Shown piece by piece: positions 1 to 26,555 of a DNA stretch of 31,446 nucleotides. The stretch is from the IMG/VR virus record IMGVR_UViG_2872698443_000005; one strand, 5' to 3'. Numbering within the stretch: position 1 is the first letter of the stretch; the number at the start of each line of letters is the position of its first letter. The notes under the pieces were generated by a model, which did no database searches, was not told the DNA's origin, and was given only the letters and a program-made list of their open reading frames with translations. Source of the stretch: a virus (lineage: Duplodnaviria; Heunggongvirae; Uroviricota; Caudoviricetes). A program made the position numbers and the translations under genes.

Positions 1-890
1 ATGAAAAGCATATTAATTGAAAAACCGAATCAACTGGCGATTGTCGAACGTGAAATACCCACCCCGTCAGCGGGTGAAGTACGAGTAAAAGTGAAACTTG
101 CCGGAATTTGTGGTTCAGATAGCCATATTTATCGTGGGCATAATCCTTTTGCGAAATATCCGCGCGTCATTGGTCATGAATTCTTTGGCGTCATTGATGC
201 AGTGGGTGAAGGCGTGGAAAGCGCCAGAGTCGGTGAACGTGTTGCTGTCGATCCGGTGGTCAGCTGTGGGCATTGCTATCCGTGCTCTATAGGTAAACCG
301 AACGTTTGTACGACACTGGCTGTATTAGGTGTGCACGCTGACGGTGGTTTCAGTGAATATGCCGTGGTTCCGGCAAAAAATGCGTGGAAAATTCCTGAAG
401 CAGTGGCCGATCAATATGCGGTAATGATCGAACCTTTTACCATTGCGGCTAACGTAACCGGACATGGTCAACCGACTGAAAATGATACCGTTCTGGTTTA
501 TGGTGCCGGTCCAATCGGCCTGACGATCGTTCAGGTATTAAAAGGCGTCTATAACGTTAAAAATGTGATTGTTGCCGATCGCATTGATGAACGACTGGAA
601 AAAGCGAAAGAGAGCGGGGCTGACTGGGCGATTAATAACAGCCAGACACCGCTTGGCGAGATTTTCACTGAAAAAGGCATCAAGCCGACATTAATTATCG
701 ATGCGGCTTGTCATCCTTCTATCCTGAAAGAGGCCGTAACGCTGGCTTCTCCAGCGGCACGTATTGTATTGATGGGGTTCTCCAGTGAACCGTCTGAAGT
801 GATTCAGCAAGGAATTACCGGAAAAGAACTCTCTATTTTCTCTTCACGCTTAAATGCAAATAAATTCCCGATCGTTATCGACTGGTTAAG
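1..890 (+). pseudogene. rspB: Zn-dependent alcohol dehydrogenase family gene (RspB-like), 3' end cut off by IS1 after codon ~296
   Basis: ORF from position 1 with the GHE..FGV and CGxC Zn-ADH motifs and a GAGPIG Rossmann motif. The reading frame runs straight into the IS1 terminal repeat at 891, so the last residues of the 303-aa ORF are IS1-encoded. Symbol is from recollection of E. coli RspB (about 339 aa). Confidence 0.7.
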
Positions 891-945
891 GGTAATGCTG
901 CCAACTTACTGATTTAGTGTATGATGGTGATTTTAAGGTGCTTGC

Positions 946-1221
946 GTGGCTTCCATTTCCATCAGATGTCCTTCCTGCTCCGCTACTGAAGGCGTGGTGC
1001 GTAACGGCAAAAGCACTGCCGGACATCAGCGCTATCTCTGCTCTCACTGCCGTAAAACATGGCAACTGCAGTTCACTTACACCGCTTCTCAACCCGGTAC
1101 GCACCAGAAAATCATTGATATGGCCATGAATGGCGTTGGATGCCGGGCAACTGCCCGCATTATGGGCGTTGGCCTCAACACGGTTTTACGTCACTTAAAA
1201 AACTCAGGCCGCAGTCGGTAA
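946..1221 (+). CDS. insA: IS1 InsA (transposition inhibitor / N-terminal part of the InsAB' transposase)
   Basis: 91-aa [26 protein letters not shown]... with a Zn-finger and HTH; the A6C slippery motif ttaaaaaactc sits at about 1194-1204. Confidence 0.92.
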
Positions 1222-1643
1222 CCTCGCGCATACAACCGGGCAGTGATGTGATTGTCTGCGCGGAAATGGACGAACAGTGGGGCTATGTCGGGGCTAAATC
1301 GCGCCAGCGCTGGCTGTTTTACGCGTATGACAGGCTCCGGAAGACGGTTGTTGCGCACGTATTCGGTGAACGCACGATGGCGACGCTGGGGCGTCTTATG
1401 AGCCTGCTGTCACCCTTTGACGTGGTGATATGGATGACGGATGGCTGGCCGCTGTATGAATCCCGCCTGAAGGGAAAGCTGCACGTAATCAGCAAGCGAT
1501 ATACGCAGCGAATTGAGCGGCATAACCTGAATCTGAGGCAGCACCTGGCACGGCTGGGACGGAAGTCGCTGTCGTTCTCAAAATCGGTGGAGCTGCATGA
1601 CAAAGTCATCGGGCATTATCTGAACATAAAACACTATCAATAA
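1140..1643 (+). CDS. insB: IS1 InsB (transposase catalytic part, made as InsAB' by a -1 frameshift)
   Basis: 167-aa ORF in the -1 frame relative to insA, overlapping the insA 3' end. Confidence 0.9.
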
Positions 1644-1770
1644 GTTGGAGTCATTACCATGGCCAGCATATTTGGCAAAATCTTAATCAGGAAAAGTATG
1701 CTAACTGATCTTACCCAGCAATAGTGGACACGCAGCTAAGTGAGTAAACTCTCAGTCAGAGGTGACTCAC

Positions 1771-2070
1771 ATGACAAAAACAGTATCAACCAGTAAAAAA
1801 CCCCGTAAACAGCATTCGCCTGAATTTCGCAGTGAAGCCCTGAAGCTTGCTGAACGCATCGGTGTTACTGCCGCAGCCCGTGAACTCAGCCTGTATGAAT
1901 CACAGCTCTACAACTGGCGCAGTAAACAGCAAAATCAGCAGACGTCTTCTGAACGTGAACTGGAGATGTCTACCGAGATTGCACGTCTCAAACGCCAGCT
2001 GGCAGAACGGGATGAAGAGCTGGCTATCCTCCAAAAGGCCGCGACATACTTCGCGAAGCGCCTGAAATGA
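1771..2070 (+). CDS. insE: IS3 OrfA (InsE), HTH DNA-binding transposase subunit
   Basis: 99-aa [35 protein letters not shown]... with a leucine-zipper-like C-terminus; overlaps orfB in an ATGA arrangement. Confidence 0.9.
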
Positions 2071-2933
2071 AGTATGTCTTTATTGAAAAACATCAGGCTG
2101 AGTTCAGCATCAAAGCAATGTGCCGCGTGCTCCGGGTGGCCCGCAGCGGCTGGTATACGTGGTGTCAGCGGCGGACAAGGATAAGCACGCGTCAGCAGTT
2201 CCGCCAACACTGCGACAGCGTTGTCCTCGCGGCTTTTACCCGGTCAAAACAGCGTTACGGTGCCCCACGCCTGACGGATGAACTGCGTGCTCAGGGTTAC
2301 CCCTTTAACGTAAAAACCGTGGCGGCAAGCCTGCGCCGTCAGGGACTGAGGGCAAAGGCCTCCCGGAAGTTCAGCCCGGTCAGCTACCGCGCACACGGCC
2401 TGCCTGTGTCAGAAAATCTGTTGGAGCAGGATTTTTACGCCAGTGGCCCGAACCAGAAGTGGGCAGGAGACATCACGTACTTACGTACAGATGAAGGCTG
2501 GCTGTATCTGGCAGTGGTCATTGACCTGTGGTCACGTGCCGTTATTGGCTGGTCAATGTCGCCACGCATGACGGCGCAACTGGCCTGCGATGCCCTGCAG
2601 ATGGCGCTGTGGCGGCGTAAGAGGCCCCGGAACGTTATCGTTCACACGGATCGTGGAGGCCAGTACTGTTCAGCAGATTATCAGGCGCAACTGAAGCGGC
2701 ATAATCTGCGTGGAAGTATGAGCGCAAAAGGTTGCTGCTACGATAATGCCTGCGTGGAAAGCTTCTTTCATTCGCTGAAAGTGGAATGTATCCATGGAGA
2801 ACACTTTATCAGCCGGGAAATAATGCGGGCAACGGTGTTTAATTATATCGAATGTGATTACAATCGGTGGCGGCGGCACAGTTGGTGTGGCGGCCTCAGT
2901 CCGGAACAATTTGAAAACCAGAACCTCGCTTAG
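2067..2933 (+). CDS. insF: IS3 OrfB (InsF), DDE transposase catalytic domain
   Basis: 288-aa ORF in the -1 frame relative to orfA; DDE/rve-type integrase core (..HTDRGGQY.., ..[11 protein letters not shown]..). Confidence 0.9.
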
Positions 2934-2966
2934 GCCTGTGTCCATATTACGTGGGTAGGATCAAAC

Positions 2967-3056
2967 CATTGTGGTGAAGTGCAGGTTTGCTGCATGAATA
3001 GTTTTACAGCAGAAGCTAACTGCTGGCATGGCAAAACAAAGTGCGTAAGTGGATGA
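2967..3056 (+). pseudogene. 3' remnant of an unidentified gene, cut at its 5' side by IS1 and split by IS3
   Basis: Removing IS3 and one AAC copy joins 1661-1705 to 2967-3056 into one open frame (...GQHIWQNLNQEKYANHCGEVQVCCMNSFTAEANCWHGKTKCVSG*) with no start codon after the IS1 end; stop at 3054-3056 is followed about 30 bp later by a hairpin terminator. Confidence 0.25.
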
Positions 3057-3082
3057 CTCCCACAAAAAGCACCACAATCTCA

Positions 3083-3105
3083 AACCCGCTCAGGCGGGTT
3101 TTTTA
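3083..3105. terminator. Rho-independent terminator hairpin, possibly bidirectional
   Basis: cccgc-tcag-gcggg stem-loop followed by a T-run on the + strand and preceded by an A-run (T-run on the - strand). Confidence 0.5.
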
Positions 3106-3163
3106 TTATCTGCTTTAAATATATTATTAAAATATAAAAAATACTTGTTACTAATAAAATCAA

Positions 3164-3385
3164 TCAGGCTACAGCTTTAAGATTTGTCTGGAATATTTTG
3201 TTGCAATGAGGGCAGATCAAAAGGGCACCTTTTTGTACTCTTGAAAAACTGTGTTCTGACTCTTGGGTGCAGTTTGGGCAGGAACATTTAACGAGATAAT
3301 TACGGCGTGATTTTGAGTCTTTACGTTCTGACATAGGCTTTTCCTGTATAAATGGCCGTATACAGTACACTAAATATGAAAACAT
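3164..3385 (-). CDS. Hypothetical small Zn-ribbon protein (two CxxC pairs)
   Basis: 73-aa ORF; CPNC...CPHC motifs. Stop is about 60 bp from the 3083-3105 hairpin on the - strand. True start may be the internal Met (MSERK...). Confidence 0.3.
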   Translation of the reverse strand: MFSYLVYCIRPFIQEKPMSERKDSKSRRNYLVKCSCPNCTQESEHSFSRVQKGALLICPHCNKIFQTNLKAVA

Positions 3386-3553
3386 TTCTCGTATTATTAT
3401 TTTATATATGACTTTCTTTCAAAATAATTACTCACATTTTTAATGTGTATGTTTCTTTAGCGCCGTTGAGAACAACGTGTGCTGTCAAAACTACCCCGTA
3501 GACTCCGATCTTTTCAAACATATTGCACCATCCGTGTACATCGGGGTGAGGAT

Positions 3554-3769
3554 ATGAAATCAATGGATAAGTTAACAACAGGTGTTGCCTATGGCACATC
3601 GGCGGGTAATGCTGGTTTCTGGGCATTGCAGTTACTCGATAAAGTAACTCCGTCACAGTGGGCTGCAATCGGTGTGCTGGGTAGCCTGGTTTTTGGCCTG
3701 CTGACGTATCTGACAAATCTTTATTTCAAGATTAAAGAAGACAGGCGTAAGGCTGCGAGAGGAGAGTAA
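3554..3769 (+). CDS. Class II holin / pinholin (phage 21 S-like), dual-start motif MKSMDK
   Basis: [28 protein letters not shown]...[35 protein letters not shown]: two transmembrane segments, charged C-terminus, Met1-Lys-x-Met4 dual start. First gene of the lysis cassette. Confidence 0.85.
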
Positions 3770-3773
3770 TCCA

Positions 3774-4081
3774 ATGACTCAAGACTATGAACTGGTTGTG
3801 AAAGGAGTCCGTAATTTTGAGAATAAAGTTACGGTAACTGTAGCCTTACAGGACAAAGAACGCTTTGACGGTGAAATTTTTGGCCTGGATGTCGCCATGG
3901 ACCGTGTTGAAGGAGCTGCGCTGGAGTTTTATGAGGCAGCAGCCAGAAGGAGCGTCCGGCAAGTCTTCCTGGAAGTAGCAGAAAAATTGTCAGAAAAAGT
4001 TGAGTCTTATCTGCAGCATCAGTACTCCTTTAAGATTGAAAATCCTGCCAATAAGCACGAACGTCCTCATCATAAATATAT

Positions 4082-4085
<4 letters not shown>
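3774..4085 (+). CDS. ydfR: Uncharacterised 103-aa protein between holin and endolysin (YdfR-like)
   Basis: ORF with a good RBS (gagaggagag) 5 nt after the holin stop; its stop overlaps the endolysin start (ATGA). No recognisable catalytic motif. Confidence 0.55.
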
Positions 4086-5109
<1,024 letters not shown>

Positions 5110-5339
5110 GGTAATATTAAATCGGAACATTTACATCGCGGAATGTAAAATTTAAATAAAAAGGACTCTTCCATGAGTCAAAATTCCTGAAATCTTAAGG
5201 GTAAGATAAAAGGTCTTAATCAGAATGACACGTTTTATTAATAAATAAAGCTATTCTTTCATTGCTGTGTTTTTCTTTACAAAAGTAATCCTTGCTATGG
5301 GTGGTTAATCATGCGTTAATGGTGTTCTGGTTTGTTACA

Positions 5340-5370
5340 AATTTATCTGAAGCAGTCATTGTTATAATTT
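5340..5370 (+). promoter_or_regulatory. Candidate sigma70 promoter with extended -10 (TGtTATAAT) upstream of the cold-shock gene
   Basis: tgttataat at 5360-5368 inside an AT-rich region; it would give a 5' UTR of about 100 nt, as is typical for csp genes. The -35 element is weak. Confidence 0.3.
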
Positions 5371-5472
5371 TATTATTTGTACCTCTTGAGATTTCCTTGT
5401 TGGTTTTTCTCTCTGATATTTTTTTTTCGGACCATTCTGCCCAAGGGCTAATTTCTTCAAAAGGTAATAATT

Positions 5473-5685
5473 ATGTCTAACAAAATGACTGGTTTAGTGA
5501 AATGGTTTAACCCTGAAAAAGGTTTTGGTTTCATCACGCCGAAAGATGGCAGCAAAGATGTGTTTGTCCATTTCTCAGCAATTCAGAGCAACGATTTCAA
5601 AACATTAACTGAGAATCAGGAAGTTGAATTTGGTATTGAGAACGGACCTAAAGGCCCTGCCGCTGTTCATGTAGTGGCGCTTTGA
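5473..5685 (+). CDS. cspI: Cold-shock protein, CspA family (CspI-like)
   Basis: 70-aa [26 protein letters not shown]...FVHFSAI with the RNP1/RNP2 motifs of cold-shock domain proteins. Confidence 0.9.
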
Positions 5686-5717
5686 GGTAGACAATATTAC
5701 AAACCATATTCACTTTA

Positions 5718-5884
5718 GATGCCCGTGTTGTCATGGTTCCCAGTATAGAACATCATCTTTTGATGTTTCTGACATGAATCCTTTCGGGGCAAAATGTATC
5801 TTTTGTAAATCAATGATGATTACATTTGATAATATTTCACAATACTTAAATGCCAGCCGTCTGTCGTTGGATTTAAAAAAGTGA
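5718..5884 (+). pseudogene. Small Zn-ribbon ORF (YnfN-like) with a probable frame disruption near its start
   Basis: An open frame encoding ..RCPCCHGSQYRTSSFDVSDMNPFGAKCIFCKSMMITFDNISQYLNASRLSLDLKK* has no canonical start; the nearest upstream ATG (5718) is in another frame and stops after 9 codons. One base more or less in the C-run at 5722-5724 would fuse them. Confidence 0.3.
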
Positions 5885-5891
5885 AAATGAA

Positions 5892-5914
5892 GGCTCCTTC
5901 GGGAGCTTTTTTGC
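5892..5914 (+). terminator. Rho-independent terminator
   Basis: gctcc-ttcg-ggagc hairpin followed by a run of six T. Confidence 0.6.
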
Positions 5915-5956
5915 TTGGTGTCTATTCGATGGATACTCACATACTACGGTAACATC

Positions 5957-6187
5957 ATGAAAAAAATCATAGTTTTTTTTAACTCTGAACCAGCAGTGGT
6001 AGTGCCAGCGATGACTGGAGTTAACACCATCATGCGTGAATATCCAAATGGCGAAAAAACACACCTTACTGTAATGGCCGCAGGGTTTCCATCTCTGACC
6101 GGAGATCATAAAGTCATTTATGTAGCCGCGGATCGACATGTTACTTCAGAAGAAATTCTGGAAGCAGCAATAAGGCTCTTGAGTTGA
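5957..6187 (+). CDS. Hypothetical 76-aa protein
   Basis: ORF MKKIIVFFNSEPAVVVPAMTGVNTIMREYPNGEKTHLTVMAAGF...; ATG start chosen inside the longer tool ORF. Weak RBS and no recognisable motif. Confidence 0.4.
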   Translation: MKKIIVFFNSEPAVVVPAMTGVNTIMREYPNGEKTHLTVMAAGFPSLTGDHKVIYVAADRHVTSEEILEAAIRLLS

Positions 6188-6358
6188 TTTGATGCTATTG
6201 CATTGATAATTCAGGAAAATTCTCTTTGTCTGTTTGTGTAAAATTTAGACTATCGTATGTTGATTATTGCGATGTTTCATCTTATCTTTTACACGTTTGC
6301 ACCATATAATCGACTTACTGTGTAACTGGAAAGTCATAACAGACTAAAAGAGGAAATG

Positions 6359-6532
6359 ATGAATATTGAAGACTTAAAAACAAAAGCAGAAGCAGATATT
6401 TCTGAATATATAACAAAAAAAATTATTGAACTTAAGAAAAAGACCGGGAAAGAAGTTACCAGTATTCAGTTTACCGCACGGGAAAAAATGACGGGTCTTG
6501 AAAGCTATGATGTCAAGATTAATTTAATCTGA
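6359..6532 (+). CDS. gnsB: Gns-family small protein (GnsB-like), 57 aa
   Basis: MNIEDLKTKAEADISEYITKKIIELKKKTGKEVTSIQFTAREKMTGLESYDVKINLI, preceded by the RBS aagagga. Absent from the ORF track because it is under 60 aa. Confidence 0.75.
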   Translation: MNIEDLKTKAEADISEYITKKIIELKKKTGKEVTSIQFTAREKMTGLESYDVKINLI

Positions 6533-6561
6533 TGTATTCAATAATAAAATTTATCCATAAA

Positions 6562-6582
6562 CCTCGTTTTTACGGGGTTTTG
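6562..6582 (+). terminator. Possible weak rho-independent terminator after the Gns-like gene
   Basis: cctcg/cgggg stem (one G-U pair) followed by tttt. Confidence 0.3.
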
Positions 6583-6683
6583 TTATATTTGAATGGTTCC
6601 GAATATCTAAATCACAATTGTTGATGGTTTTTATTAAATCAATGCAGTCCGGCTCAGGAGTGAGAGAAGCCGGACGTTATGGT

Positions 6684-7094
6684 TTAGCGTGGTAAGATCT
6701 GTGTAGTTTTCTGGATGCTTTCAGTAAATAGTAATGAGTTATCAAAGGCATAGTAATATCTTGGGTGTTCCTGGATATTTGTAACCCATCGGAAAACTCC
6801 TGCTTTAGCAAGATTTTCCCTGTATTGTTGAAATGTGATTTCTTTTGATTTCAACTTATTATAGGAGGTCTCTATAAGATGTTTGTTTCTGGAGAATTTA
6901 ACATTTACAACCTTTTTGAGTCCTTTTACTAACACTATGTTGTCGTTTTCTAACACAATGTGAATATTATCTGTGGCTAAATAGTAAATATAAAGTGAGA
7001 CATTGTGACGTTTTAGCTCAGAATAAAATAATTCACAGTTTAAATCTTTACGCACTTGATCGAATATTTCTTTAAAAATGGCAGCCTGAGCCAT
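6684..7094 (-). CDS. ydfO: YdfO-like protein (DUF1398 family), 136 aa
   Basis: Minus-strand ORF; start taken at the second ATG ([11 protein letters not shown]...), which has a GGAAGG RBS 6-7 nt upstream. Confidence 0.65.
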
Positions 7095-7394
7095 TGGTAA
7101 ACCTTCCATGTGATACGATGGCGCGTAGTTTGCATTATCGTGTTTATTGTTTCAATCTGGTCTGACCTCTTTGTGTTTTGTTGATGATTTATGTCAAATA
7201 TTAAGCCTGTTTTTAATGAATAGTGTTGATTGCGTAACAAAGTTGAGCCTTGCTGGCATCCAGGAGGGATATGCAACCGACAGATGTATGTAAGGTCGAT
7301 GTACTCAAACTTTCATACTTTTCCTCTTTTATGCAGAAAGATTTGAAGTAATATTTTAACCGCTAGATGACGAGCAAACGCATGGAGCGACAAA

Positions 7395-7601
7395 ATGAAT
7401 AAAGAACAATCTGCTGATGAACTCTCGTTGGATCTGATTCGTGTAAAAAATATGCTTAATAGCACCATTTCTATGAGTTACCCGGATGTTGTAATTGCAT
7501 GTATAGAACATCAGGTGTCTCTGGAAGCATTCAGGGCAATTGAGGCAGCGTTGGTGAAGCACGATAAGAATTCGAAGGATTATTCCCTGGTGGTTGACTG
7601 A
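7395..7601 (+). CDS. Hypothetical 68-aa protein
   Basis: [71 protein letters not shown], predicted mostly helical; a ggag RBS lies upstream. Confidence 0.45.
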
Positions 7602-7949
7602 GCACCATAACTGCTAATCATTCAAACTATTTCACCTGTGACAGAGTCAATGTCGCATTCTGTCACTGTCAGGCTAATACAAAGCTGCAATTCAACTACT
7701 GCAATGCCCTCGTAATTAGGTGAATTTACAATATCGTCCTGTTCGGATGCCGGCTGCATTGCTGAAGATGAGGCATTTATGGTTCGCATATTTTCCCCTC
7801 ATGCTCGTCAGTCCTGTGCGTAGGAAGAAACAGGACACTCACACTAATTTGTGTGGGCATGCTGTGATGTCCTTCTGAATTATTCCTATGCCATTATGTA
7901 AGCGCTGTATCAGATGCTCGTCACGGCTGTCAGGCTGTCGGGTCCTCCC

Positions 7950-8000
7950 GGTGGGGGCCCCTGCCACGGGGCGGGAGCGTCGCGGAAAAAGGCTAGTTTT
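7950..8000. other. cos site candidate (cosN-like nicking region) upstream of the small terminase gene
   Basis: cgggtcctcccggtggg...cacggggcgggagcgtcgcgg resembles, from memory, the lambda cohesive-end region (..cgggtcctttccggtg..acg GGGCGGCGACCT cgcggg) and sits about 180 bp upstream of the Nu1-like gene. Confidence 0.45.
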
Positions 8001-8154
8001 TGAAATTTTATTCGTCATCATCGCTACTGTAATTGATTGATATTACAGTTGTTTTATTTTTATGGTGTCGATTCTGATTGTTTTTTGTTCATCACTAACA
8101 CCGTTTGCCTAAAGTTGTTCGCAAGATGCATGTTTAAAACATTCTGGAGCGGGT

Positions 8155-8649
8155 ATGGATCGAGAGTTAAAAAATCTGACGCTGAATATCAGTCAACTGG
8201 CGGCATTGTCAGGTGTACATCGCCAGACTGCTGCGGCAAGGCTGCAAAATCTACCCGTTGCAGGGGGGCATGAAAGCAACCTCAAGCTTTATCGGGTGGT
8301 TGATATTGTGTCGGCATTTCTGGCATTACCACCGCCGGTTGCAGAAGGCGAAATGGACGCGCATGAGCGCAAAGCCTGGTATCAGTCTGAACGTGAGCGT
8401 CTTAAGTTCGAACAGGAAACGGCACAACTCATTCCGGCCAGTGATGTCAGACGGGAGTTTGCCATCTGGGCAAAAGCGGTCGTGCAGGTGCTGGAGACAT
8501 TACCGGATATTCTTGAACGTGACTGCGGTCTGCAGCCTGCCGCTGTGAGCCGTGTTCAGTCCATTATTGATGATCTGCGCGATCAGATAGCCCTGCGGGT
8601 GACTGAAGCAGGTGCGGATGATGAGGAGGAATTACAGCAGGAGGAGTAA
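8155..8649 (+). CDS. Terminase small subunit (Nu1-like)
   Basis: 164-aa ORF with an N-terminal helix-turn-helix (LTLNISQLAALSGVHRQTAAARL) and an acidic C-terminus; stop overlaps the large-subunit start (TAATG); downstream of cos. Confidence 0.8.
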   Translation: MDRELKNLTLNISQLAALSGVHRQTAAARLQNLPVAGGHESNLKLYRVVDIVSAFLALPPPVAEGEMDAHERKAWYQSERERLKFEQETAQLIPASDVRREFAIWAKAVVQVLETLPDILERDCGLQPAAVSRVQSIIDDLRDQIALRVTEAGADDEEELQQEE

Positions 8650-10712
8650 TGCTGAATCAGGAAACCGCAAAGGCAGCACGAACCGATTCAGGTTATATCC
8701 TTCGCGCACCGAGACGAATGCGGGTTGCTGATGCCGTTGCTCAGTATATGCGGGTGCCCATGGGGGCAGGGAACTCAGTCCCGTGGGATCCGCTGGTGGC
8801 ACCGTATGTTATTGAGCCTATGAACTGCCTGGCCTCGCGTGAATACGACGCAGTGATATTTGTTGGCCCGGCACGAACCGGCAAGACTATCGGCCTGATT
8901 GACGGCTGGGTGATTTACAACGTGATTTGCGATCCTGCTGATATGCTGATCATTCAGATGACGGAGGAAAAAGCCCGCGAACACTCCAAAAAACGACTCG
9001 CCAGAACGTTTCGCGTCAGCCCGGAAGTGGTCAGTCGCCTGAGTCCGAACAAAAATGACAACAACGTTTATGACAGAACATTCCTTGCTGGCAACTACCT
9101 GAAAATCGGCTGGCCGTCAGTCAATATCATGTCTTCATCAGATTATAAATGCGTGGCGCTGACGGATTATGACCGTTTTCCGGAAGATATTGATGGTGAG
9201 GGGGATGCCTTCTCTCTTGCCTCAAAACGTACCACCACATTTATGTCCAGTGGTATGACGCTGGTGGAGAGTTCCCCCGGCAGGGATGTGAAGGATGTGA
9301 AATGGCGACGGACTTCACCGCATGAGGCTCCACCAACCACGGGGATCCTGTCGCTCTATAACCGTGGCGATCGCCGTCGCTGGTACTGGCCCTGTCCACA
9401 CTGTGGTGAGTATTTTCAGCCCTGCGGCGATGTGGTTGCTGGTTTCCGTGATATTGCCGATCCTGTGCTGGCAAGTGAGGCGGCTTATATTCAGTGTCCT
9501 TCCTGTTCAGGACGGATTTTGCCTGAACAAAAACGCGAGCTGAACGGACGTGGGGTCTGGTTACGGGATGGTGAATCCATCAATGCAGATGGCAGTCGTT
9601 ATGGTGATCCCCGGCGTTCACGTATTGCGTCATTCTGGATGGAGGGGCCGGCAGCTGCTTATCAGACACTCTCGCAACTCGTTTACAAACTGCTTACTGC
9701 AGAACAGGAATACGAGACAACCGGAAGTGAAGAGACACTCAAGACGGTTATCAATACCGACTGGGGATTACCTTATCTTCCCCGCGCCAGCATGGAGCAA
9801 CGAAAAAGTGAATTGCTTGAGCAGCGGGCAGAGCCAGTTCCTTCCCGCAGTGTGCCGGATGGCGTTAATTTCCTTGTGGCGATAGTGGATGTGCAGGCGG
9901 GACGTCATCGCCGTTTTGTGGTTCAGGTAACGGGCTATGGCAGCCGTGGCGAACGCTGGATTATTGATCGTTACAACATCACGCAGTCATTGCGCGGTGA
10001 CAGCGACGGGGAGAGCCAGCGAATTGATCCGGCCAGCTATCCGGAAGACTGGGATGTCCTGCTGACGGATGTTTTTCATAAAAGCTGGCCGCTGGCCTCC
10101 GATCCTTCTCAACAAATGCGACTGATGGCAATGGCGGTGGACTCCGGCGGTGAAGACGGGGTCACTGATAATGCCTATAAATTCTGGCGTCGTTGCCGTC
10201 GTGATGGCCTTGGTAAACGTATTTACCTGTTTAAGGGCGACAGCATCCGGCGCGCAAAACTGATCACCCGTACATTCCCTGATAACACCGGACGAACGGG
10301 CCGACGGGCGCAGGCCGCAGGTGATGTACCGCTCTGGCTTCTTCAGACGGATGCCCTGAAAGACCGGGTGAATAACGCGTTATGGCGTGACTCGCCAGGT
10401 CCCGGCTATGTGCATTTCCCTGACTGGCTGGGGAGCTGGTTTTACGACGAACTGACGTATGAAGAGCGGAGCAGTGACGGGAAATGGAGTAAGCCGGGTC
10501 GCGGTGCCAACGAAGCTTTTGACCTGATGGTGTATGCCGAGGCTCTGGTCATTCTGCATGGATACGAAAAGATCCGCTGGCCGGATGCACCGGAGTGGGC
10601 GAGTCGGGAAACCTGGCTGGAGTGTGTCCCGGACAGTACCGAACCGTCACCCACACCGGAACCGGTATCCACGCCTGTTAAAAAAACAAAAACGGAAGAA
10701 AACAGTAACTGA
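8649..10712 (+). CDS. Terminase large subunit (lambda gpA family)
   Basis: 687-aa ORF with a Walker A motif (GPARTGKT) and a CPHCGE Zn-ribbon-like motif recalled from lambda gpA. Confidence 0.9.
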   Translation: MLNQETAKAARTDSGYILRAPRRMRVADAVAQYMRVPMGAGNSVPWDPLVAPYVIEPMNCLASREYDAVIFVGPARTGKTIGLIDGWVIYNVICDPADMLIIQMTEEKAREHSKKRLARTFRVSPEVVSRLSPNKNDNNVYDRTFLAGNYLKIGWPSVNIMSSSDYKCVALTDYDRFPEDIDGEGDAFSLASKRTTTFMSSGMTLVESSPGRDVKDVKWRRTSPHEAPPTTGILSLYNRGDRRRWYWPCPHCGEYFQPCGDVVAGFRDIADPVLASEAAYIQCPSCSGRILPEQKRELNGRGVWLRDGESINADGSRYGDPRRSRIASFWMEGPAAAYQTLSQLVYKLLTAEQEYETTGSEETLKTVINTDWGLPYLPRASMEQRKSELLEQRAEPVPSRSVPDGVNFLVAIVDVQAGRHRRFVVQVTGYGSRGERWIIDRYNITQSLRGDSDGESQRIDPASYPEDWDVLLTDVFHKSWPLASDPSQQMRLMAMAVDSGGEDGVTDNAYKFWRRCRRDGLGKRIYLFKGDSIRRAKLITRTFPDNTGRTGRRAQAAGDVPLWLLQTDALKDRVNNALWRDSPGPGYVHFPDWLGSWFYDELTYEERSSDGKWSKPGRGANEAFDLMVYAEALVILHGYEKIRWPDAPEWASRETWLECVPDSTEPSPTPEPVSTPVKKTKTEENSN

Positions 10713-10748
10713 CGATGTTAACCCCTGGCTGACTTCCGGAGGATGGTT

Positions 10749-10961
10749 ATGAATCAGAATGATATTGAAGCCATGATTCAGCGTTATACGGAAGCTGAAA
10801 TGGCGGTGCTGGACGGAAAATCCGTCACTTTTAATGGTCAGCAGATGACCATGGAAAACTTATCTGAGATCCGGCAGGGGCGGCAGGAGTGGGAGCGCCG
10901 CCTTGCGGCTCTGATTACACGACGACGGGGGCATCCCGGGTACCGGCTGGCGAGGTTCTGA
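10749..10961 (+). CDS. Head-tail joining protein (gpW-like)
   Basis: 70-aa ORF located between terminase and portal as in lambda; RBS ggagga 5 nt upstream; stop overlaps the portal ATG (ATGA). Confidence 0.65.
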   Translation: MNQNDIEAMIQRYTEAEMAVLDGKSVTFNGQQMTMENLSEIRQGRQEWERRLAALITRRRGHPGYRLARF

Positions 10962-12469
10962 TGGCAATTCTTGATGATGTGATTGGCGTTTTTTCACCAG
11001 GATGGAAAGCGGCAAGGCTGCGTTCCCGAGCGGTGATCCAAGCTTATGAGGCCGTAAAAACGACGCGGACACACAAAGCCCGACGGGAGAACCGAACTGC
11101 CGACCAGTTAAGCCAGTACGGGGCCGTGTCGTTACGTGAGCAGGCCCGTTACCTTGATAACAACCACGATCTGGTCATTGGTGTATTTGACAAGCTGGAA
11201 GAACGGGTGGTGGGGAAAAACGGGATTATTGTCGAGCCACATCCGGTATTACGCAATGGTGCCATTGCCCGTGACCTGGCAGCGGAGATACGTACCCGAT
11301 GGAGTGAATGGTCTGTCAGTCCGGAAGTCACCGGGCAGTTTACCCGTCCGATGCTGGAACGTCTGATGCTGCGTACCTGGCTGCGCGATGGTGAGGTGTT
11401 TGCCCAGATGGTTTCCGGGCGCATAAACAGCCTGACGCCTTCTGCCGGTGTTCATTTCTGGCTGGAGGCGCTCGAGCCGGACTTTATTCCCATGACCAGT
11501 GATGAGAGCAACAGGCTGAATCAGGGCGTGTTTGTTGATGACTGGGGGCGTCCCGAAAAATATCTGGTGTATAAAAGTCGTCCTGTATCCGGACGGCAGA
11601 TGGAAACCAAAGAAGTGGATGCAGAGCGAATGCTGCATCTTAAATTTGTTCGCCGTCTGCACCAGATGCGCGGGACGTCTTTATTGTCCGGTGTGCTGAT
11701 CCGCCTCAGCGCCCTGAAAGAGTATGAAGATTCTGAGCTGACTGCAGCAAGGATCGCCGCTGCTCTGGGGATGTACATCCGGAAAGGCGACGGACAGAGC
11801 TATGAAACGGATGGTAATGACAGCAAGGAGAATGAACGCGAGCTTACCATTCAGCCAGGCATTATTTACGACGATCTGAAACCCGGCGAAGAAATCGGAA
11901 TGGTGAAGTCGGATCGTCCCAATCCTAACCTTGAAACTTTTCGTAATGGTCAGTTGCGTGCCGTGGCGGCGGGCAGTCGTCTGAGTTTTTCCAGTACGGC
12001 ACGCAACTATAACGGTACTTACAGCGCCCAGCGTCAGGAACTGGTTGAGTCTACTGATGGCTACCTGATCCTGCAGGACTGGTTTATTGGTGCCGTCACC
12101 CGCCCGATGTATCGTGCCTGGCTGAAACAGGCTGTGGCATCCGGTGTTATCAGGCTACCCCGCGATCTTGACCGTTCTTCACTGTATACCGCGGTGTATT
12201 CCGGACCAGTGATGCCGTGGATTGACCCTGTTAAGGAGGCTGAGGCCTGGAAAATCCAGATTCGTGGTGGAGCGGCGACAGAATCAGACTGGGTACGTGC
12301 TGGTGGTCGTAATCCGGATGATGTCAAACGTCGGCGCAAGGCCGAAATTGATGAAAACCGCAAGCTGGATCTGGTATTTGATACCGATCCGGCCAGTGAT
12401 AAAGGAGGCAGCAGTGCCGCAACGAAACGACAGGAGCCGCAGCACACCGACGACCAGTCCGAAGAATAA
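10961..12469 (+). CDS. Portal protein (assigned by position and size; not lambda gpB-like in sequence)
   Basis: 502-aa ORF directly after the gpW-like gene and before the protease-capsid gene. Confidence 0.7.
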   Translation: MAILDDVIGVFSPGWKAARLRSRAVIQAYEAVKTTRTHKARRENRTADQLSQYGAVSLREQARYLDNNHDLVIGVFDKLEERVVGKNGIIVEPHPVLRNGAIARDLAAEIRTRWSEWSVSPEVTGQFTRPMLERLMLRTWLRDGEVFAQMVSGRINSLTPSAGVHFWLEALEPDFIPMTSDESNRLNQGVFVDDWGRPEKYLVYKSRPVSGRQMETKEVDAERMLHLKFVRRLHQMRGTSLLSGVLIRLSALKEYEDSELTAARIAAALGMYIRKGDGQSYETDGNDSKENERELTIQPGIIYDDLKPGEEIGMVKSDRPNPNLETFRNGQLRAVAAGSRLSFSSTARNYNGTYSAQRQELVESTDGYLILQDWFIGAVTRPMYRAWLKQAVASGVIRLPRDLDRSSLYTAVYSGPVMPWIDPVKEAEAWKIQIRGGAATESDWVRAGGRNPDDVKRRRKAEIDENRKLDLVFDTDPASDKGGSSAATKRQEPQHTDDQSEE

Positions 12470-12482
12470 TTCCTGGTTCAGG

Positions 12483-14441
12483 ATGCAGGCTGGTCACCAG
12501 AGTGACGCGGATATTTATATTTATGACGAGATTGGTTTCTGGGGTGTTACAGCGAAGCAGTTTATCAGTGATCTGAATGCACTGGGCGATATCACCCACA
12601 TTAATCTCCATATTAATTCACCGGGTGGCGATGTCTTTGAAGGCATCGCCATTTTTAATGCGCTGAAAACACATGGTGCGTCCATTACGGTTTATGTCGA
12701 CGGTGTGGCGGCGTCAATGGCGTCGGTCATTGCGATGGTGGGAAACCCGGTCATTATGCCGGAAAACACTTTCATGATGATTCATAAACCATTTGGCTTT
12801 ACGGGCGGTGATGCGGAGGACATGCGCACCTATGCCGACCTGCTCGATAAAGTTGAGGCGGTTCTGTTACCCGCTTATGCACAGAAAACCGGGAAAACCA
12901 CCGATGAAATTGCTGCCATGCTGGCGGATGAGACCTGGATGTCCGGTGCCGAATGTCTGGCACATGGATTTGCTGATCAGGTAACGCCAGCCGTTAAGGC
13001 AATGGCATGTATTCAGTCAAAACGTACAGAGGAATTTAAAAAGATGCCGGAATCCATTCGAAACATGATTACTCCGCCACGCAACAGTGCTCCACGCGTA
13101 CAGGATGATGAACCTGCAGCCTCCCGGACGCCAGTGCAGGCAGCAGCACCCGTGGTGGATGAAAACAGTATCCGTGCGCAGGTACTGGCAGAGCAAAAAG
13201 CGCGTGTAAACGGTATTAATGATCTGTTTGCCATGTTTGGCGGGCGTTATCAGACTCTGCAGGCTCAGTGTCTTGCCGATCCTGAATGTTCGCTGGAGCA
13301 GGCCCGCGAAAAGCTGTTGAACGAGATGGGGCGCGAGTCCACGCCATCCAATAAAAATACCCCGGCTCATATTTATGCCGGTAACGGTAATTTTGTGGGG
13401 GACGGGATCCGCCAGGCGCTGATGGCGCGTGCCGGATTTGAAAAAACCGAACGTGATAATGTCTACAACGGGATGACCCTGCGTGAATATGCCCGTATGT
13501 CACTGACTGAACGGGGTATTGGGGTTTCCAGTTATAACCCGATGCAGATGGTCGGTGCGGCGTTCACACACAGTACGTCTGACTTCGGTAATATTCTGCT
13601 GGATGTTGCGAACAAAGCCATTCTGCAGGGCTGGGAAGATGCTCCTGAAACCTATGAACAGTGGACGCGGAAAGGTCAGTTGTCTGATTTTAAAATTGCC
13701 CATCGTGTGGGTATGGGGGGCTTCAGTGCTCTGCGTCAGGTGCGTGAAGGGGCGGAATATAAATACGTCACCACCGGAGATAAACAGGCCACTATTGCAC
13801 TGGCGACCTATGGCGAGCTGTTCAGTATCACCCGTCAGGCCATTATCAATGATGATCTGAATATGCTGACCGATGTCCCGATGAAGCTGGGCCGTGCGGC
13901 GAAATCCACCATTGCCGATCTGGTTTATGCCATTCTGACGTCTAACCCGAAAATCTCCACAGATAATGTAAGTCTGTTCGATAAAGCGAAACATGCAAAC
14001 GTACTGGAGAGCGCTGCAATGGACGTGGCATCGCTGGATAAAGCCCGCCAGTTGATGCGCGTTCAGAAAGAGGGGGAGCGTCATCTGAATATTCGTCCTG
14101 CGTTCGTACTGGTACCGACGGCGATGGAGTCTGTTGCTAACCAGGTCATTCGCTCCTCAAGTGTCAAGGGGGCTGACATTAACGCCGGTATTATTAACCC
14201 GGTGAAAGATTTTGCGACCGTTATTGCAGAGCCTCGTCTTGATGATAACAGCCAGACCACCTTCTACCTGGCTGCGTCCAAAGGCTCCGATACGATTGAA
14301 GTGGCTTATCTCAACGGTGTGGATACGCCATATATTGATCAGATGGAGGGCTTCAGTGTGGATGGCGTGACAACGAAAGTGCGTATTGACGCCGGTGTCG
14401 CGCCAGTTGATCACCGCGGTCTGGTGAAATGTACGGCGTAA
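12483..14441 (+). CDS. Single ORF with ClpP-like prohead protease N-terminus, scaffold-like middle region and HK97-fold major capsid C-terminus
   Basis: 652 aa from the first ATG after the portal stop. N-terminus has ClpP/S14-like motifs (GGDVFEGIAIFNALK, GVAASMASVI, MMIHKP); the middle is Ala/Gln-rich and helical; the C-terminal ~300 aa look like a capsid domain. No stop or frame change between the parts. Confidence 0.75.
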   Translation: MQAGHQSDADIYIYDEIGFWGVTAKQFISDLNALGDITHINLHINSPGGDVFEGIAIFNALKTHGASITVYVDGVAASMASVIAMVGNPVIMPENTFMMIHKPFGFTGGDAEDMRTYADLLDKVEAVLLPAYAQKTGKTTDEIAAMLADETWMSGAECLAHGFADQVTPAVKAMACIQSKRTEEFKKMPESIRNMITPPRNSAPRVQDDEPAASRTPVQAAAPVVDENSIRAQVLAEQKARVNGINDLFAMFGGRYQTLQAQCLADPECSLEQAREKLLNEMGRESTPSNKNTPAHIYAGNGNFVGDGIRQALMARAGFEKTERDNVYNGMTLREYARMSLTERGIGVSSYNPMQMVGAAFTHSTSDFGNILLDVANKAILQGWEDAPETYEQWTRKGQLSDFKIAHRVGMGGFSALRQVREGAEYKYVTTGDKQATIALATYGELFSITRQAIINDDLNMLTDVPMKLGRAAKSTIADLVYAILTSNPKISTDNVSLFDKAKHANVLESAAMDVASLDKARQLMRVQKEGERHLNIRPAFVLVPTAMESVANQVIRSSSVKGADINAGIINPVKDFATVIAEPRLDDNSQTTFYLAASKGSDTIEVAYLNGVDTPYIDQMEGFSVDGVTTKVRIDAGVAPVDHRGLVKCTA

Positions 14442-14464
14442 ACGTCGCAGACAACAACTCTGAT

Positions 14465-14484
14465 GGCCCGTAAGGGCTTTTTTT
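14465..14484 (+). terminator. Possible rho-independent terminator after the capsid gene
   Basis: gccc-gtaa-gggc stem-loop followed by a run of seven T. Confidence 0.4.
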
Positions 14485-14527
14485 GTACCTGAAATCAGCC
14501 TCTGAACGGGGCTGTGCGGAGACAGTT

Positions 14528-14851
14528 ATGGCAAAGAATTTTGTAGAAGAAGGAAAAACGGTGGCGATTGTTGCCAGTGCAGCCATCAGCAGCGGAGATC
14601 TGGTGCAGGTGGGTGATGTTTTTGCGGTGGCGCTGACCGATATTCCACAGGGTGAAACAGGCGACGGCATGACCGAAGGTGTGTTTATCCTGCCTAAACT
14701 GAAAACGGATGACATGAAAACGGGTAAGAAGGTTTATCTGAAGTCCGGAAAAGTTCAGCTGACTAACAGCGGCTCTGATCCGCTGGTCGGGGTTGTCTGG
14801 GCAGATGCCGGAACCAGTGCAGAAGAAGTGCCGGTAAAACTCAATGTCTGA
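14528..14851 (+). CDS. Small head-associated protein (hypothetical), 107 aa
   Basis: ORF with a good RBS (ggaga); located between the capsid gene and the head-completion/tail genes. Confidence 0.5.
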   Translation: MAKNFVEEGKTVAIVASAAISSGDLVQVGDVFAVALTDIPQGETGDGMTEGVFILPKLKTDDMKTGKKVYLKSGKVQLTNSGSDPLVGVVWADAGTSAEEVPVKLNV

Positions 14852-15119
14852 TCCTTTTTCCCGGCTGGCAGCGCGTATGGATGCGATCACGGTCAGAAAG
14901 ATGGGAAAGACAGCCTCGATTAATGATGTCGATATGGCTGTGATCCCGGGCGAAACACTGGCAGAGCTGAATGCTCTGTCCGGACCTGCGGTCTCTCTGG
15001 TGGTGTTTTCTTCGGGATACCGCCCACGGCGCGGGGATCGCGTTGTTTATGACGGACAACAATGGACGGTCACACGGCATGAACGTTTTAACGGTAAGCC
15101 AATGATCTTTATTGAGTAA
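14844..15119 (+). CDS. Head-tail adaptor / head completion protein (hypothetical), 91 aa
   Basis: ORF overlapping the preceding gene by 8 nt; occupies the position of lambda FII. Confidence 0.45.
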   Translation: MSDPFSRLAARMDAITVRKMGKTASINDVDMAVIPGETLAELNALSGPAVSLVVFSSGYRPRRGDRVVYDGQQWTVTRHERFNGKPMIFIE

Positions 15120-15130
15120 AGAGGTGTGGG

Positions 15131-15709
15131 ATGAAGGGGCTTGAGAATGCCATCCGCAATCTGAACAGCCTTGATACCCGTATGGTGCCACAGGCCAGCG
15201 CATGGGCGATAAACCGTGTGGCACAGAAAGCGGTCTCGGTTGCCACCCGGCAGGTTGCCGGGAATACCGTTGCGGGAGATAACCAGGTGAAAGGGATCCC
15301 CCTGAAACTGGTACGTCAGCGTGTCCGGGTGTTTAAAGCCAGTCCGTCAGGAAAAATGACGGCCAGGATCCGCGTTAACCGGGGCAATCTGCCCGCCATT
15401 AAGCTGGGGACAGCCCGGGTCAGACTGGCCCGGCGTGGTGGAAAACTGCAGTACCGTGGCAGTGTGCTGAAGGTGGGTAAATATCTTTTCCGGGATGCGT
15501 TTATTCAGCAACTGGCGAATGGTCGCTGGCATGTGATGCGGCGTATTGATGGCAAAAATCGTTACCCCATTGATGTGGTGAAAATCCCGCTGTCCGGACC
15601 GCTGACACAGGCATTTGAAGATGCCCGCGACCACATCATTGCTGCGGAAATGCCGAAACAGCTGGGGTATGCACTGAAACAACAACTGAGGTTATGGCTG
15701 ACCCGATGA
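15131..15709 (+). CDS. Z: Tail completion protein Z (lambda gpZ homologue)
   Basis: 192 aa; motifs shared with recalled lambda Z (KGLE..A..NL, QQL.NGRWHVM.R..GKNRYPIDVVKIP, KELGYAL.HQLR). Confidence 0.85.
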   Translation: MKGLENAIRNLNSLDTRMVPQASAWAINRVAQKAVSVATRQVAGNTVAGDNQVKGIPLKLVRQRVRVFKASPSGKMTARIRVNRGNLPAIKLGTARVRLARRGGKLQYRGSVLKVGKYLFRDAFIQQLANGRWHVMRRIDGKNRYPIDVVKIPLSGPLTQAFEDARDHIIAAEMPKQLGYALKQQLRLWLTR

Positions 15710-16107
15710 ACCGGCATACACAAATCCGCCAGGCCGTACTGGCACGCCTTCGGGAACAGTGTGGAGACAGCGCCACGTTTTTTGACGGGCTTCCGGCATT
15801 TATTGATGCGCAGGAACTGCCTGCCGTGGCGGTGTGGCTGAGTGATGCTCAGTACACCGGAAAAATGACGGATGAAGATGACTGGCAGGCTGTTCTGCAT
15901 ATTGCCGTCTTCATCCGGGCACAGGCACCGGATTCAGAGCTGGATATGTGGATGGAGAGCACCATTTTCCCTGCCCTGAATGATATACCGGCACTTTCCG
16001 GACTCATCGACACCCTGATCCCACTCGGTTTTAACTATCAACGTGATAATGAGATGGCCACCTGGACGATGGCGGAAATCACGTACCAGATCACGTACAC
16101 GAATTAA
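15706..16107 (+). CDS. U: Tail terminator protein U (lambda gpU homologue)
   Basis: 133 aa; ATG overlaps the Z stop (ATGA); shares GATFFDG.PA..D....PAVAV.L......TG and PDSELD.WMES with recalled lambda U. Confidence 0.85.
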   Translation: MNRHTQIRQAVLARLREQCGDSATFFDGLPAFIDAQELPAVAVWLSDAQYTGKMTDEDDWQAVLHIAVFIRAQAPDSELDMWMESTIFPALNDIPALSGLIDTLIPLGFNYQRDNEMATWTMAEITYQITYTN

Positions 16108-16117
16108 GGAGGTGGTA

Positions 16118-16861
16118 ATGACCACACCAAATCCACTGGCAAAGACGAAAGGTGCGGGGACGACGTTCTGGATGTATACCGGCAACGGCGATGCGTTTGC
16201 GAACCCTTTGTCGGACACTGACTGGCTGCGTCTTGCGATGGTGAAGGATCTGCAACCTGGCGAAATGACCGCTGATGCAGAAGATGACACTTATCTCGAT
16301 GATGAAGATGCAGACTGGAAAACGACAACCCAGGGGCAGAAATCCGTTGGTGATACTTCGGCGACGCTGGCCTGGCGTCCGGGTGACAGCGGGCAGAAAA
16401 AACTGGTTCAGTTGTTCGACTCCGGTGAAGTCTGCGCGTTTCGTATCAAATATCCCAACGGCACTGTTGATGTTTTCCGTGGCTGGCTGAGCTCACTGGG
16501 TAAAACCATTGCCTCAAAAGACGTGATGACCCGCACTGTGAAAATCAGCGGTGTGGGGCGTCCGTATCTGGCAGAGGAAGGCACTGAAACCGTGAGCGTT
16601 ACCGGGCTGACAGTATCACCGGCGTCTGCCAGTGTAAAAGTGGGAGCAACCACCACGCTGACCTTTACAGTAAAACCTGACGGAGCCAGTGACAAAGCGA
16701 TCAGTGTGCATTCGTCAGATCCACAGACTGCCACGGTTACCCTGAACGGACTTGTGGCCACGGTAAAAGGCGTGAAGCAGGGCAGTGTCAGCATTGTGGG
16801 CATGACCGCTGACGGGAATTTTGTGGCTGTGACTGCGGTGACTGTCAGCGCAGCAGGTTAA
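16118..16861 (+). CDS. V: Major tail tube protein V (lambda gpV homologue) with C-terminal Ig-like domain
   Basis: 247 aa; strong RBS aaggaggtgg; N-terminal ..KGAGTT.W.Y.G.GD..ANPLSD.DW.RLA.VKDL.PGE.TA.. matches recalled lambda V. Confidence 0.9.
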   Translation: MTTPNPLAKTKGAGTTFWMYTGNGDAFANPLSDTDWLRLAMVKDLQPGEMTADAEDDTYLDDEDADWKTTTQGQKSVGDTSATLAWRPGDSGQKKLVQLFDSGEVCAFRIKYPNGTVDVFRGWLSSLGKTIASKDVMTRTVKISGVGRPYLAEEGTETVSVTGLTVSPASASVKVGATTTLTFTVKPDGASDKAISVHSSDPQTATVTLNGLVATVKGVKQGSVSIVGMTADGNFVAVTAVTVSAAG

Positions 16862-16882
16862 CAGGACGATACTCATCATTTG

Positions 16883-16905
16883 CCCCGGTTATGCGGGGCT
16901 TTTTT
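16883..16905 (+). terminator. Hairpin plus T-run after the major tail gene (possible partial terminator)
   Basis: ccccg-gttatg-cgggg stem followed by cttttttg, between V and G. Confidence 0.4.
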
Positions 16906-16921
16906 GCAGGTGGAGAACATG

Positions 16922-17308
16922 ATGTTTCTGAAACAGGACACGTTTAATTATGAAAAACAGTCCGTGGTGCTCAGTGAGCTGTCCGGGCTGCAGAGAATTG
17001 AATATCTGACGTTTGTTCAGCAGCGAACGGCAAAGTTTGATGCCGGGGAGGGAGAACTGCCGGAGGCTGAACGACAGATTGCTTTTCTGCGGATGGGGAT
17101 GGATATCAATGCCTGGCTGGTTTCCCGCTCACTGTGGAATGCGGATCAGTCTAAGGATGTAGAGACGCTTTGCGCATCCGTTATTACAACATGGTCGTAT
17201 GATGCCCTGGGTGCGGGGGCGGAGATGGTTCTGTCGCTGAGCGGTATGGGGGCCATTGATAATGCCGTGGATGATGAGCATGAGGCGCTGACGCCGGAAA
17301 AGTCCTGA
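16922..17308 (+). CDS. G: Tail assembly chaperone G (lambda gpG homologue)
   Basis: MFLKQDTFNYEKQSVVLSELSGLQRIEYL...AEMVLSLSGMGAIDNA... resembles recalled lambda G; RBS ggtggaga. Confidence 0.85.
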   Translation: MFLKQDTFNYEKQSVVLSELSGLQRIEYLTFVQQRTAKFDAGEGELPEAERQIAFLRMGMDINAWLVSRSLWNADQSKDVETLCASVITTWSYDALGAGAEMVLSLSGMGAIDNAVDDEHEALTPEKS

Positions 17309-17646
17309 CGCGGGAAATGCAGTTTGTCATGCGGCTTGCCCGGGAGTTCCGGCGGGCAGACTGGCGGCGGATGCTGTCGGAAATGTCGGCCACTGAGCTT
17401 GGTGAGTGGGGCGATTATTTCCGGATGCAGAGCTTCAGTGATGTGTGGATGGATGCGCAGTTTGCCTCGCTGAAGGCATTGATCGTGAGAATGGTGTCCG
17501 GCAGCAGTGATGCTGCGGTGGCTGATTTCAGCCTTTTACCGGAAGAGAACGGGATACCGGAGCGAACGGACGAAGAACTGATGCATCTTGGGGAAGGTAT
17601 TTCCGGAGGTGTGCGTTATGGACCAGATAGCCAACCTGGTCATTGA
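17284..17646 (+). CDS. T: T reading frame, predicted to be expressed only as a G-T fusion by a -1 ribosomal frameshift near the 3' end of G
   Basis: The -1 frame opens at 17284 and the G stop is at 17306-17308, so the slip must occur within about 22 nt. That window contains GGAAAAG (17296-17302), at the position of lambda's GGGAAAG slip site. Confidence 0.7.
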   Translation, partial: GADAGKVLTREMQFVMRLAREFRRADWRRMLSEMSATELGEWGDYFRMQSFSDVWMDAQFASLKALIVRMVSGSSDAAVADFSLLPEENGIPERTDEELMHLGEGISGGVRYGPDSQPGH

Positions 17647-21012: not shown

Positions 21013-21021
21013 GAGGCTCTG

Positions 21022-21720: not shown

Positions 21721-21725
21721 ATCCC

Positions 21726-23013: not shown

Positions 23014-23073
23014 TGCAAAATGTTTTATGTGAAACCGCCTGCGGGCGGTTTTGTCATTTATGGAGCGTGAGGA

Positions 23074-26486: not shown

Positions 26487-26506
26487 AATTGTTATAACCC
26501 ATATAA

Positions 26507-26532
26507 GGGCACCAGAAATGGTGCCTTTTTTA
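26507..26532 (+). terminator. Rho-independent terminator after J
   Basis: ggcacc-agaaat-ggtgcc hairpin followed by ttttttat. Confidence 0.6.
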
Positions 26533-26555
26533 TTGCAGAAAAGCGAGAGGTAATT

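Follow-up and report, generated by a model that had tools for sequence, protein, structure and literature searches.

An IS1-associated deletion joins a truncated rspB gene to the late region of a Qin-type prophage in Escherichia coli

A 31,446-nt stretch of Caudoviricetes DNA (IMG/VR record IMGVR_UViG_2872698443_000005; hereafter "the window", meaning this whole stretch, numbered from its first letter) holds a deletion joint at which one complete copy of the insertion sequence (IS) IS1 connects the 5′ part of the host gene rspB to the lysis and late genes of a Qin-type prophage, the prophage early region being missing. The two flanks of this IS1 are ancestrally apart, the interval between them is absent, and no target duplication surrounds the element. 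The deletion is almost certainly IS1-associated, whether IS1 acted by transposition or as a substrate for recombination. The case is an ordinary one: IS-mediated deletions of this kind are textbook matter, the cryptic prophage is well known, and standard annotation already recognises all of the parts; literature on the Qin prophage, IS1 and deletion yielded nothing specific to this allele. The window as a whole is 99.98% identical to the chromosome of E. coli S163-2 (NZ_CP058709.1, 506505-537953), with two mismatches and three single-base indels, and one 5.2-kb stretch of it is an exact match to strain DETEC-P61.

The left edge of the deletion lies within rspB. The first open reading frame (ORF; 1-912) is rspB itself: nucleotides 1-890 are 100% identical to K-12 b1580 and cover 296 of its 339 codons in full, plus 2 nt, after which the frame enters IS1 and reads seven extra codons before a stop at 910-912. 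An earlier note, made from the letters of the window alone, had described an rspB-like dehydrogenase ORF running into IS1 at 891 with a loss of about 40 C-terminal codons; the loss is 43 codons. Pfam recognises ADH_N and ADH_zinc_N, the latter matching up to residue 296, and RefSeq lists rspB of S163-2 as a pseudogene "missing C-terminus". The 43 C-terminal residues that follow the Rossmann domain are lost, and the truncated RspB is probably inactive; rspA is intact.

The element at the joint is exactly 768 bp long and ends in imperfect terminal inverted repeats, GGTAATGCTGCCAACTTACTGAT and, reverse-complemented, GGTAATGACTCCAACTTATTGAT, in agreement with the length (~768 bp) and ends (~23-bp repeats starting GGTAATG/GGTGATG) of IS1. 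It encodes insA (946-1221) and insB′, which runs to 1643, and TTAAAAAAC at ~1194-1202 provides the A6C motif for the -1 frameshift between them. Pfam domains Zn_ribbon_InsA, HTH_Tnp_IS1 and DDE_Tnp_IS1 (E = 2e-78) are found, and RefSeq annotates an IS1 family transposase with programmed frameshift in S163-2. At these verified ends, the 9-bp flanks are CTGGTTAAG and ATGGCCAGC, which are identical at 4 of 9 positions and thus form no target duplication, as the earlier note had observed. Two further IS1 copies served as controls: a second IS1 located ~40 bp past the right end of the window in S163-2 carries a perfect CATATCATA duplication on both sides, and the ynfC IS1 of strain 2018-18.25PC is flanked on both sides by AACCACGAA. 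The window IS1 is not a simple insertion, its flanks being both unlike each other and non-contiguous in genomes without this IS1.

The extent of the deletion was obtained from the alignment that the earlier note had proposed, i.e., of the two IS1 flanks against genomes with an intact rspB and a Qin-like prophage. In K-12 MG1655, the flanks are 11,806 bp apart (NC_000913.3 1641220-1653025), the left one ending at rspB nt 890 and the right one starting in the cspB-ynfU spacer, at ~120 bp downstream of cspB, while the corresponding distance in E. coli C5 (NZ_CP010122.1) is 16,075 bp. We took C5 as the better reference, since the K-12 Qin prophage is itself defective. The C5 interval includes the 3′ 130 nt of rspB, an intact integrase, an excisionase, an exonuclease, ydfD, dicB, ydfC/B/A, a divergent pair of helix-turn-helix regulators (a cI/cro-like switch), ydaT, a replisome organizer and DUF977. 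Also within it are an SMODS nucleotidyltransferase and SLATT pair, a recombinase fragment, hokD, ydfU, ydfT (the Q antiterminator), cspF′ and cspB. The SMODS/SLATT pair, located at 13527-14967 of the C5 locus (L008) and lost in the window, is a candidate anti-phage defence cassette.

We then searched for the joint itself in 5,426 complete E. coli genomes, using junction queries composed of 60 nt of flank and 25 nt of IS end, a design that kept other IS copies from seeding matches. The rspB/IS1 junction was found in four genomes and the IS1/spacer junction in the same four, with no genome of this set carrying a single junction. These carriers, i.e., S163-2 (from a pangolin), DETEC-P61 (from an intensive care unit patient), TUM9754 and 19SZHZ886Rt (from a human), are separate isolates from different sources with chromosomes of 4.58-4.78 Mb. 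Since four separate isolates share both junctions, assembly error can be dismissed and the joint is inherited within one lineage.

Whether the missing DNA had been lost or moved was addressed with a 97-nt anchor unique to the carriers joined to 80-nt probes, the matched places being counted per record. Probes from C5 (int, exo, the cI-like gene, the replisome organizer, SMODS and ydfU) revealed no extra place in any of the four carriers, and probes from K-12 (the rspB 3′ end, intQ, dicA and ydfT) none in three of the four; unlike these three, TUM9754 (NZ_CP128939.1) had one extra place for one of the four K-12 probes. Apart from that single match, the early genes that the earlier note had suggested looking for elsewhere in the genome are absent from the carriers. 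Inversion and translocation are excluded because the probed DNA is gone from the carrier chromosomes: the DNA was truly lost, in a real deletion. As for the two observations named by the earlier note as contradicting its reading, IS1 has no 9-bp repeat at its ends, and the rspB 3′ end and early genes are not contiguous with this locus. An account with no deletion at all, be it a simple insertion with a decayed duplication, a mis-join across IS1 copies or an IS1-mediated inversion, has next to no probability: beyond its being possible beforehand, only the extra K-12 match in TUM9754 speaks for it, whereas the flanks are 12-16 kb apart in the reference genomes, both junctions are identical to the base in four independent complete assemblies, and probes for the rspB 3′ end and the early region are absent from carrier chromosomes. 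Simple insertion, assembly artefact and inversion or translocation were rejected on these grounds.

On the prophage side, the deletion ends in a 47-bp remnant of the cspB-ynfU spacer. From the end of IS1 at 1658 to the start of essD at 3554, we measured 1,895 bp, of which 1,258 bp are IS3, in line with the ~1.9 kb, mostly IS3, previously described between IS1 and the holin. The IS3 copy is complete, in agreement with the length (~1258 bp), TGATC-starting terminal inverted repeats and overlapping orfA and orfB of this element; it has Pfam domains HTH_Tnp_1, rve and rve_2 and an intact 3-bp duplication, AAC at 1703-1705 and again at 2964-2966. In K-12, 2018-18.25PC, C5 and PSS-08-2, window positions 1659-1705 are continuous with 2964 onwards, sharing the 3-bp AAC as an overlap. 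Because the spacer and the DNA beyond IS3 are thus contiguous in genomes without the IS and overlap by the duplicated AAC, IS3 is a simple insertion that took no part in the deletion. No genome was found with IS3 at this site next to an intact upstream spacer; IS3 here is confined to the same four carriers, a distribution that gives no order for the IS1 and IS3 events. The earlier note was silent on the spacer remnant, on the 3-bp duplication of IS3 and on ynfU, an intact gene for a small zinc-binding protein. Between IS3 and the holin, a consensus scan also picked out a terminator-like hairpin followed by a T run, because of which transcription from the IS elements seems unlikely to read through into the lysis genes. 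Separately, in the cspB-ynfU spacer without IS, an 11-codon ORF, taaggaggtccaatacATGaaacaATGGCCAGCatatttggcaaaatctTAA (MKQWPAYLAKS), which has no K-12 annotation, comes after a strong Shine-Dalgarno sequence; IS1 splits this ORF after codon 3 (the downstream part is at window 1659-1690, the upstream part in L003 7918-7932 and in K-12).

The earlier note had favoured an IS1-mediated deletion or inter-IS1 recombination over a simple insertion and left the route open; the distant flanks and the absent interval support it on the first point. As to the route, we give adjacent deletion a probability of about 0.5. An ancestor with a complete Qin-type lambdoid prophage just downstream of rspB, as in C5, would first have received IS1 in either the cspB-ynfU spacer or rspB. 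This IS1 would then have transposed intramolecularly into the other of the two sites, by the replicative, one-ended process known as "adjacent deletion", so that the ~16 kb between both sites would leave as a circle and a single IS1 would stay. With it would go the last 43 rspB codons, attL, int, xis, exo, dicB, the cI/cro-like switch and the replication genes, and further the SMODS/SLATT pair, hokD, ydfU, the Q antiterminator, cspF and cspB. No matching 9-bp duplication would be expected, because IS1 would keep one old and one new flank. IS3, 47 bp to the right of IS1, would have come by a separate, ordinary insertion. The IS1 transposase, and not host recombination, would then be the cause of the loss. 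IS1 adjacent deletions are classical: Reif and Saedler are said to have described IS1-promoted adjacent deletions in the gal region in 1975, and Turlan and Chandler reportedly described replicative intramolecular transposition of IS1 in 1995.

Several observations weigh against this route. The end product is the same as that of recombination between two direct IS1 copies, and no precursor genome, with IS1 at one of the two sites and its target duplication, was found among the 5,426 genomes, because of which the route cannot be read from relatives. IS1 is also dense at this locus elsewhere, with three copies within 7 kb in 2018-18.25PC, so that two nearby IS1 copies are not far-fetched. Finally, when compared with eight other IS1 copies, the window IS1 differs from the neighbouring S163-2 copy only at positions 293, 345, 357, 360, 363 and 486, and at the first five of these (293-363) it matches the IS1X2 copy of PSS-08-2; this pattern suggests a small conversion patch and not the left/right two-block signature of a crossover, and a patch derived from another IS1 variant would itself show that copies in this lineage exchange sequence.

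Under RecA-dependent homologous recombination, two direct IS1 copies, one in rspB with CTGGTTAAG duplicated and one in the cspB-ynfU spacer with ATGGCCAGC duplicated, would have recombined with loss of the 16 kb. This account, to which we assign somewhat less than even odds, predicts the observed flanks exactly, one from each parent, and it fits the repeated gathering of IS1 copies in the Qin early region of other strains as well as the short patch, read as exchange between copies. IS copies without target duplication have been attributed to either adjacent deletion or IS-IS recombination (PMC11708052), the latter being a documented cause of missing duplications. Recombination requires three events, though, neither parental insertion occurs in the 5,426 genomes, and the IS1 difference is an internal patch without left and right blocks, a weak point given that the parents could have been identical. 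The lack of a two-block hybrid pattern relative to the neighbouring IS1 copy is in line with adjacent deletion, but the internal sequence of the element fits either route and does not separate them. Adjacent deletion is slightly favoured only because it involves one event fewer, i.e., two (insertion and intramolecular transposition) versus three. Deletion by another route, with illegitimate recombination or break repair capturing IS1 at the break, is in turn very improbable: an IS at the centre of a deletion without duplication belongs to a class that has been discussed (PMC11708052), but the mechanism, put forward for IS5 and IS481, is itself a hypothesis, nothing at this locus demands it, and not a single base is missing from the IS1 ends, as expected of joints made by a transposase.

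What the deletion left behind is the lysis cassette and a Qin-type late region (Table 1), with DUF1327 and Phage_lysozyme also among the Pfam matches. The genes of an inducible lambdoid prophage (int/xis, cI/cro, replication and Q) are missing: consistent with the earlier note, the S163-2 annotation over the whole window is free of integrase, repressor, replication and Q genes, the sole recombinase being pinQ, and the corresponding probes are absent from the carrier chromosomes. Because it has no integrase, repressor or Q gene, the remnant would be neither excisable nor inducible, lacking the means of excision, replication and late-gene activation. It also appears to be decaying, with a nonsense codon in rrrQ (W141* at 4502-4504, G>A at 4504 relative to C5) and a +1 A frameshift at 10680 in the terminase large subunit, again relative to C5; both defects are also annotated in S163-2. 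The window also differs from C5 in having lost one base at each of 21811 (C40 peptidase gene) and 24394 (gpJ) and in having gained a T at 5419. The deletion at 24394 splits gpJ into ORFs 23074-24426 and 24456-26486. S163-2 shows none of these three lesions, and sequencing errors may explain them. Within gpJ, window 23176-23622 carries 24 substitutions in ~450 bp relative to C5, in surroundings that are 99.9% identical, and this cluster looks like a recombination patch.

Table 1 Features of the window and of related loci. Positions are those of the window unless a genome or locus is named; L numbers are our handles for loci of other genomes.
Feature	Position	Strand	Evidence
rspB 5′ part, truncated	1..890	+	K-12 identity, Pfam, RefSeq
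Complete IS1 at the deletion joint	891..1658	+	Inverted repeats, flanks, Pfam, RefSeq
47-bp remnant of the cspB-ynfU intergenic spacer, prophage-side deletion edge	1659..1705	+	Contiguity in relatives
Complete IS3, 1258 bp (orfA 1762-2070, orfB 2067-2933)	1706..2963	+	Ends, flanks, Pfam, RefSeq
Terminator-like hairpin (3082-3101) and T run, between IS3 and lysis genes	3082..3111	+	Consensus scan, pattern match only
ynfU, small zinc-binding protein gene, intact	3164..3334	-	Pfam YnfU (E = 3e-31), RefSeq
essD/essQ holin, first kept late gene	3554..3769	+	Pfam Phage_holin_2_1, RefSeq
ydfR, rrrQ (lysozyme), rzpQ: remaining lysis cassette	3774..5109	+	RefSeq, Pfam, C5 comparison
Qin-type late region: cspI-gnsB morons, terminase, portal, head, tail, gpJ, lom, tail fibre, tfaQ, pinQ	5110..31446	+	S163-2 annotation, C5 identity
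pinQ serine invertase, only recombinase in the window	30856-31446	-	
Second IS1, pinQ-ydfK spacer	S163-2 NZ_CP058709.1 537990-538757 (L004 23991-24758)		9-bp duplication CATATCATA
IS joints or insertions of other strains, Qin early/lysis region	L002 6177-6944; L003 4667-5434, 6306-7073; L005 ~4700-5930; L009 14071-15328; L007 ~8440-9207, ~10000-11200		

The deletion accounts for the rspB pseudogene of this lineage, for its lack of cspB, cspF, dicB, hokD and the Qin Q gene, and for a Qin remnant that can be neither induced nor excised. Beyond such bookkeeping it is of little import, except as a clean natural example of an insertion sequence grounding a prophage. We consider it very improbable that the deletion was selected and does not reflect neutral decay, with int, xis, the repressor, the replication genes and Q shed in one step and a near-complete head, tail and lysis set fixed. 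If it was, the kept genes (99.8% identical to those of a complete prophage) could represent a resource, for example one with which superinfecting lambdoid phages might recombine or be complemented, cspB/cspF, hokD, dicB and the SMODS/SLATT pair would have been shed in the same stroke, and recurrent IS joints at this locus could mean selection against Qin early genes and not a mere IS hotspot.

Such joints are seen in several other strains. Strain 873.10, in which rspB is intact, carries an IS1B that lacks a target duplication and links a truncated integrase to the cspB-ynfU spacer, at a distance of 31 bp from the window's IS3 site. In strain 2018-18.25PC, IS1 truncates rspB at nt 666 and is also present in cspF, in both cases without target duplication, while in PD7 and PSS-08-2 IS3 adjoins a truncated integrase and rspB is intact in both. 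The IS1 joints in loci L002 and L003 lack target duplications. All four strains resemble the window in having an early region lost or broken at an IS, but differ from it in breakpoints, IS1 variant (93-96.5% identical) or IS type. We considered 873.10 as a sister allele, which would share the right junction and differ in the left one, the mark of nested adjacent deletions, and rejected it: its right junction lies 31 bp further right and its IS1 variant is 96.5% identical, because of which it represents an independent event. Strain cS76a was also discarded as a partial relative, since its insertions, an IS1A between ynfU and essD and an IS3 in rrrQ, are both unrelated. Given that several strains show independent IS joints at the same locus, IS-mediated erosion of the Qin early region appears to be recurrent.

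The joint likewise resembles the classical IS1 adjacent deletions and the IS deletions of the E. coli B long-term evolution experiment (PMC11708052), where a complete IS stands at the joint, the deletion starts from the exact IS end and there is no matching duplication. Those cases were caught as they arose, with the parent genome known, whereas the window presents the end product only.

The closest known systems are the two reference prophages. The Qin-type identity of the window prophage is apparent from its setting in S163-2, with rspA-rspB′ on one side and pinQ-ydfK-ydfJ′ on the other, and from its 97.6-98.6% identity to segments of K-12 Qin. The latter (NC_000913.3 1632277-1652745) occupies the same locus, between rspB and ydfJ, and is 97.6% identical over window 2964-7172 (ynfU, essQ/D, ydfR, rrrQ, rzpQ, cspI, ynfN, gnsB and ydfO) and 98.6% identical over 29486-31446 (the stfQ 3′ end, tfaQ and pinQ). 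The two show complementary losses: the early region (intQ′, dicA/C/B/F, relBE, hokD, ydfU, Q, cspF and cspB) is present in K-12 Qin, which lacks a 22.3-kb head and tail block corresponding to window 7173-29485, while the window has this block but neither the early region nor the rspB 3′ end. The apparently complete C5 prophage (NZ_CP010122.1, ~2855.6-2898 kb) shares the attachment site by rspB, and its late region is 99.84% identical to window 2964-27885 (24.9 kb). Unlike the window, C5 has an intact rspB, the 16,075 bp in place, neither IS1 nor IS3 at these sites, and intact rrrQ and terminase genes. Taken together, the window, K-12 Qin and C5 make the ancestral Qin-type phage, of ~45 kb, reconstructable.

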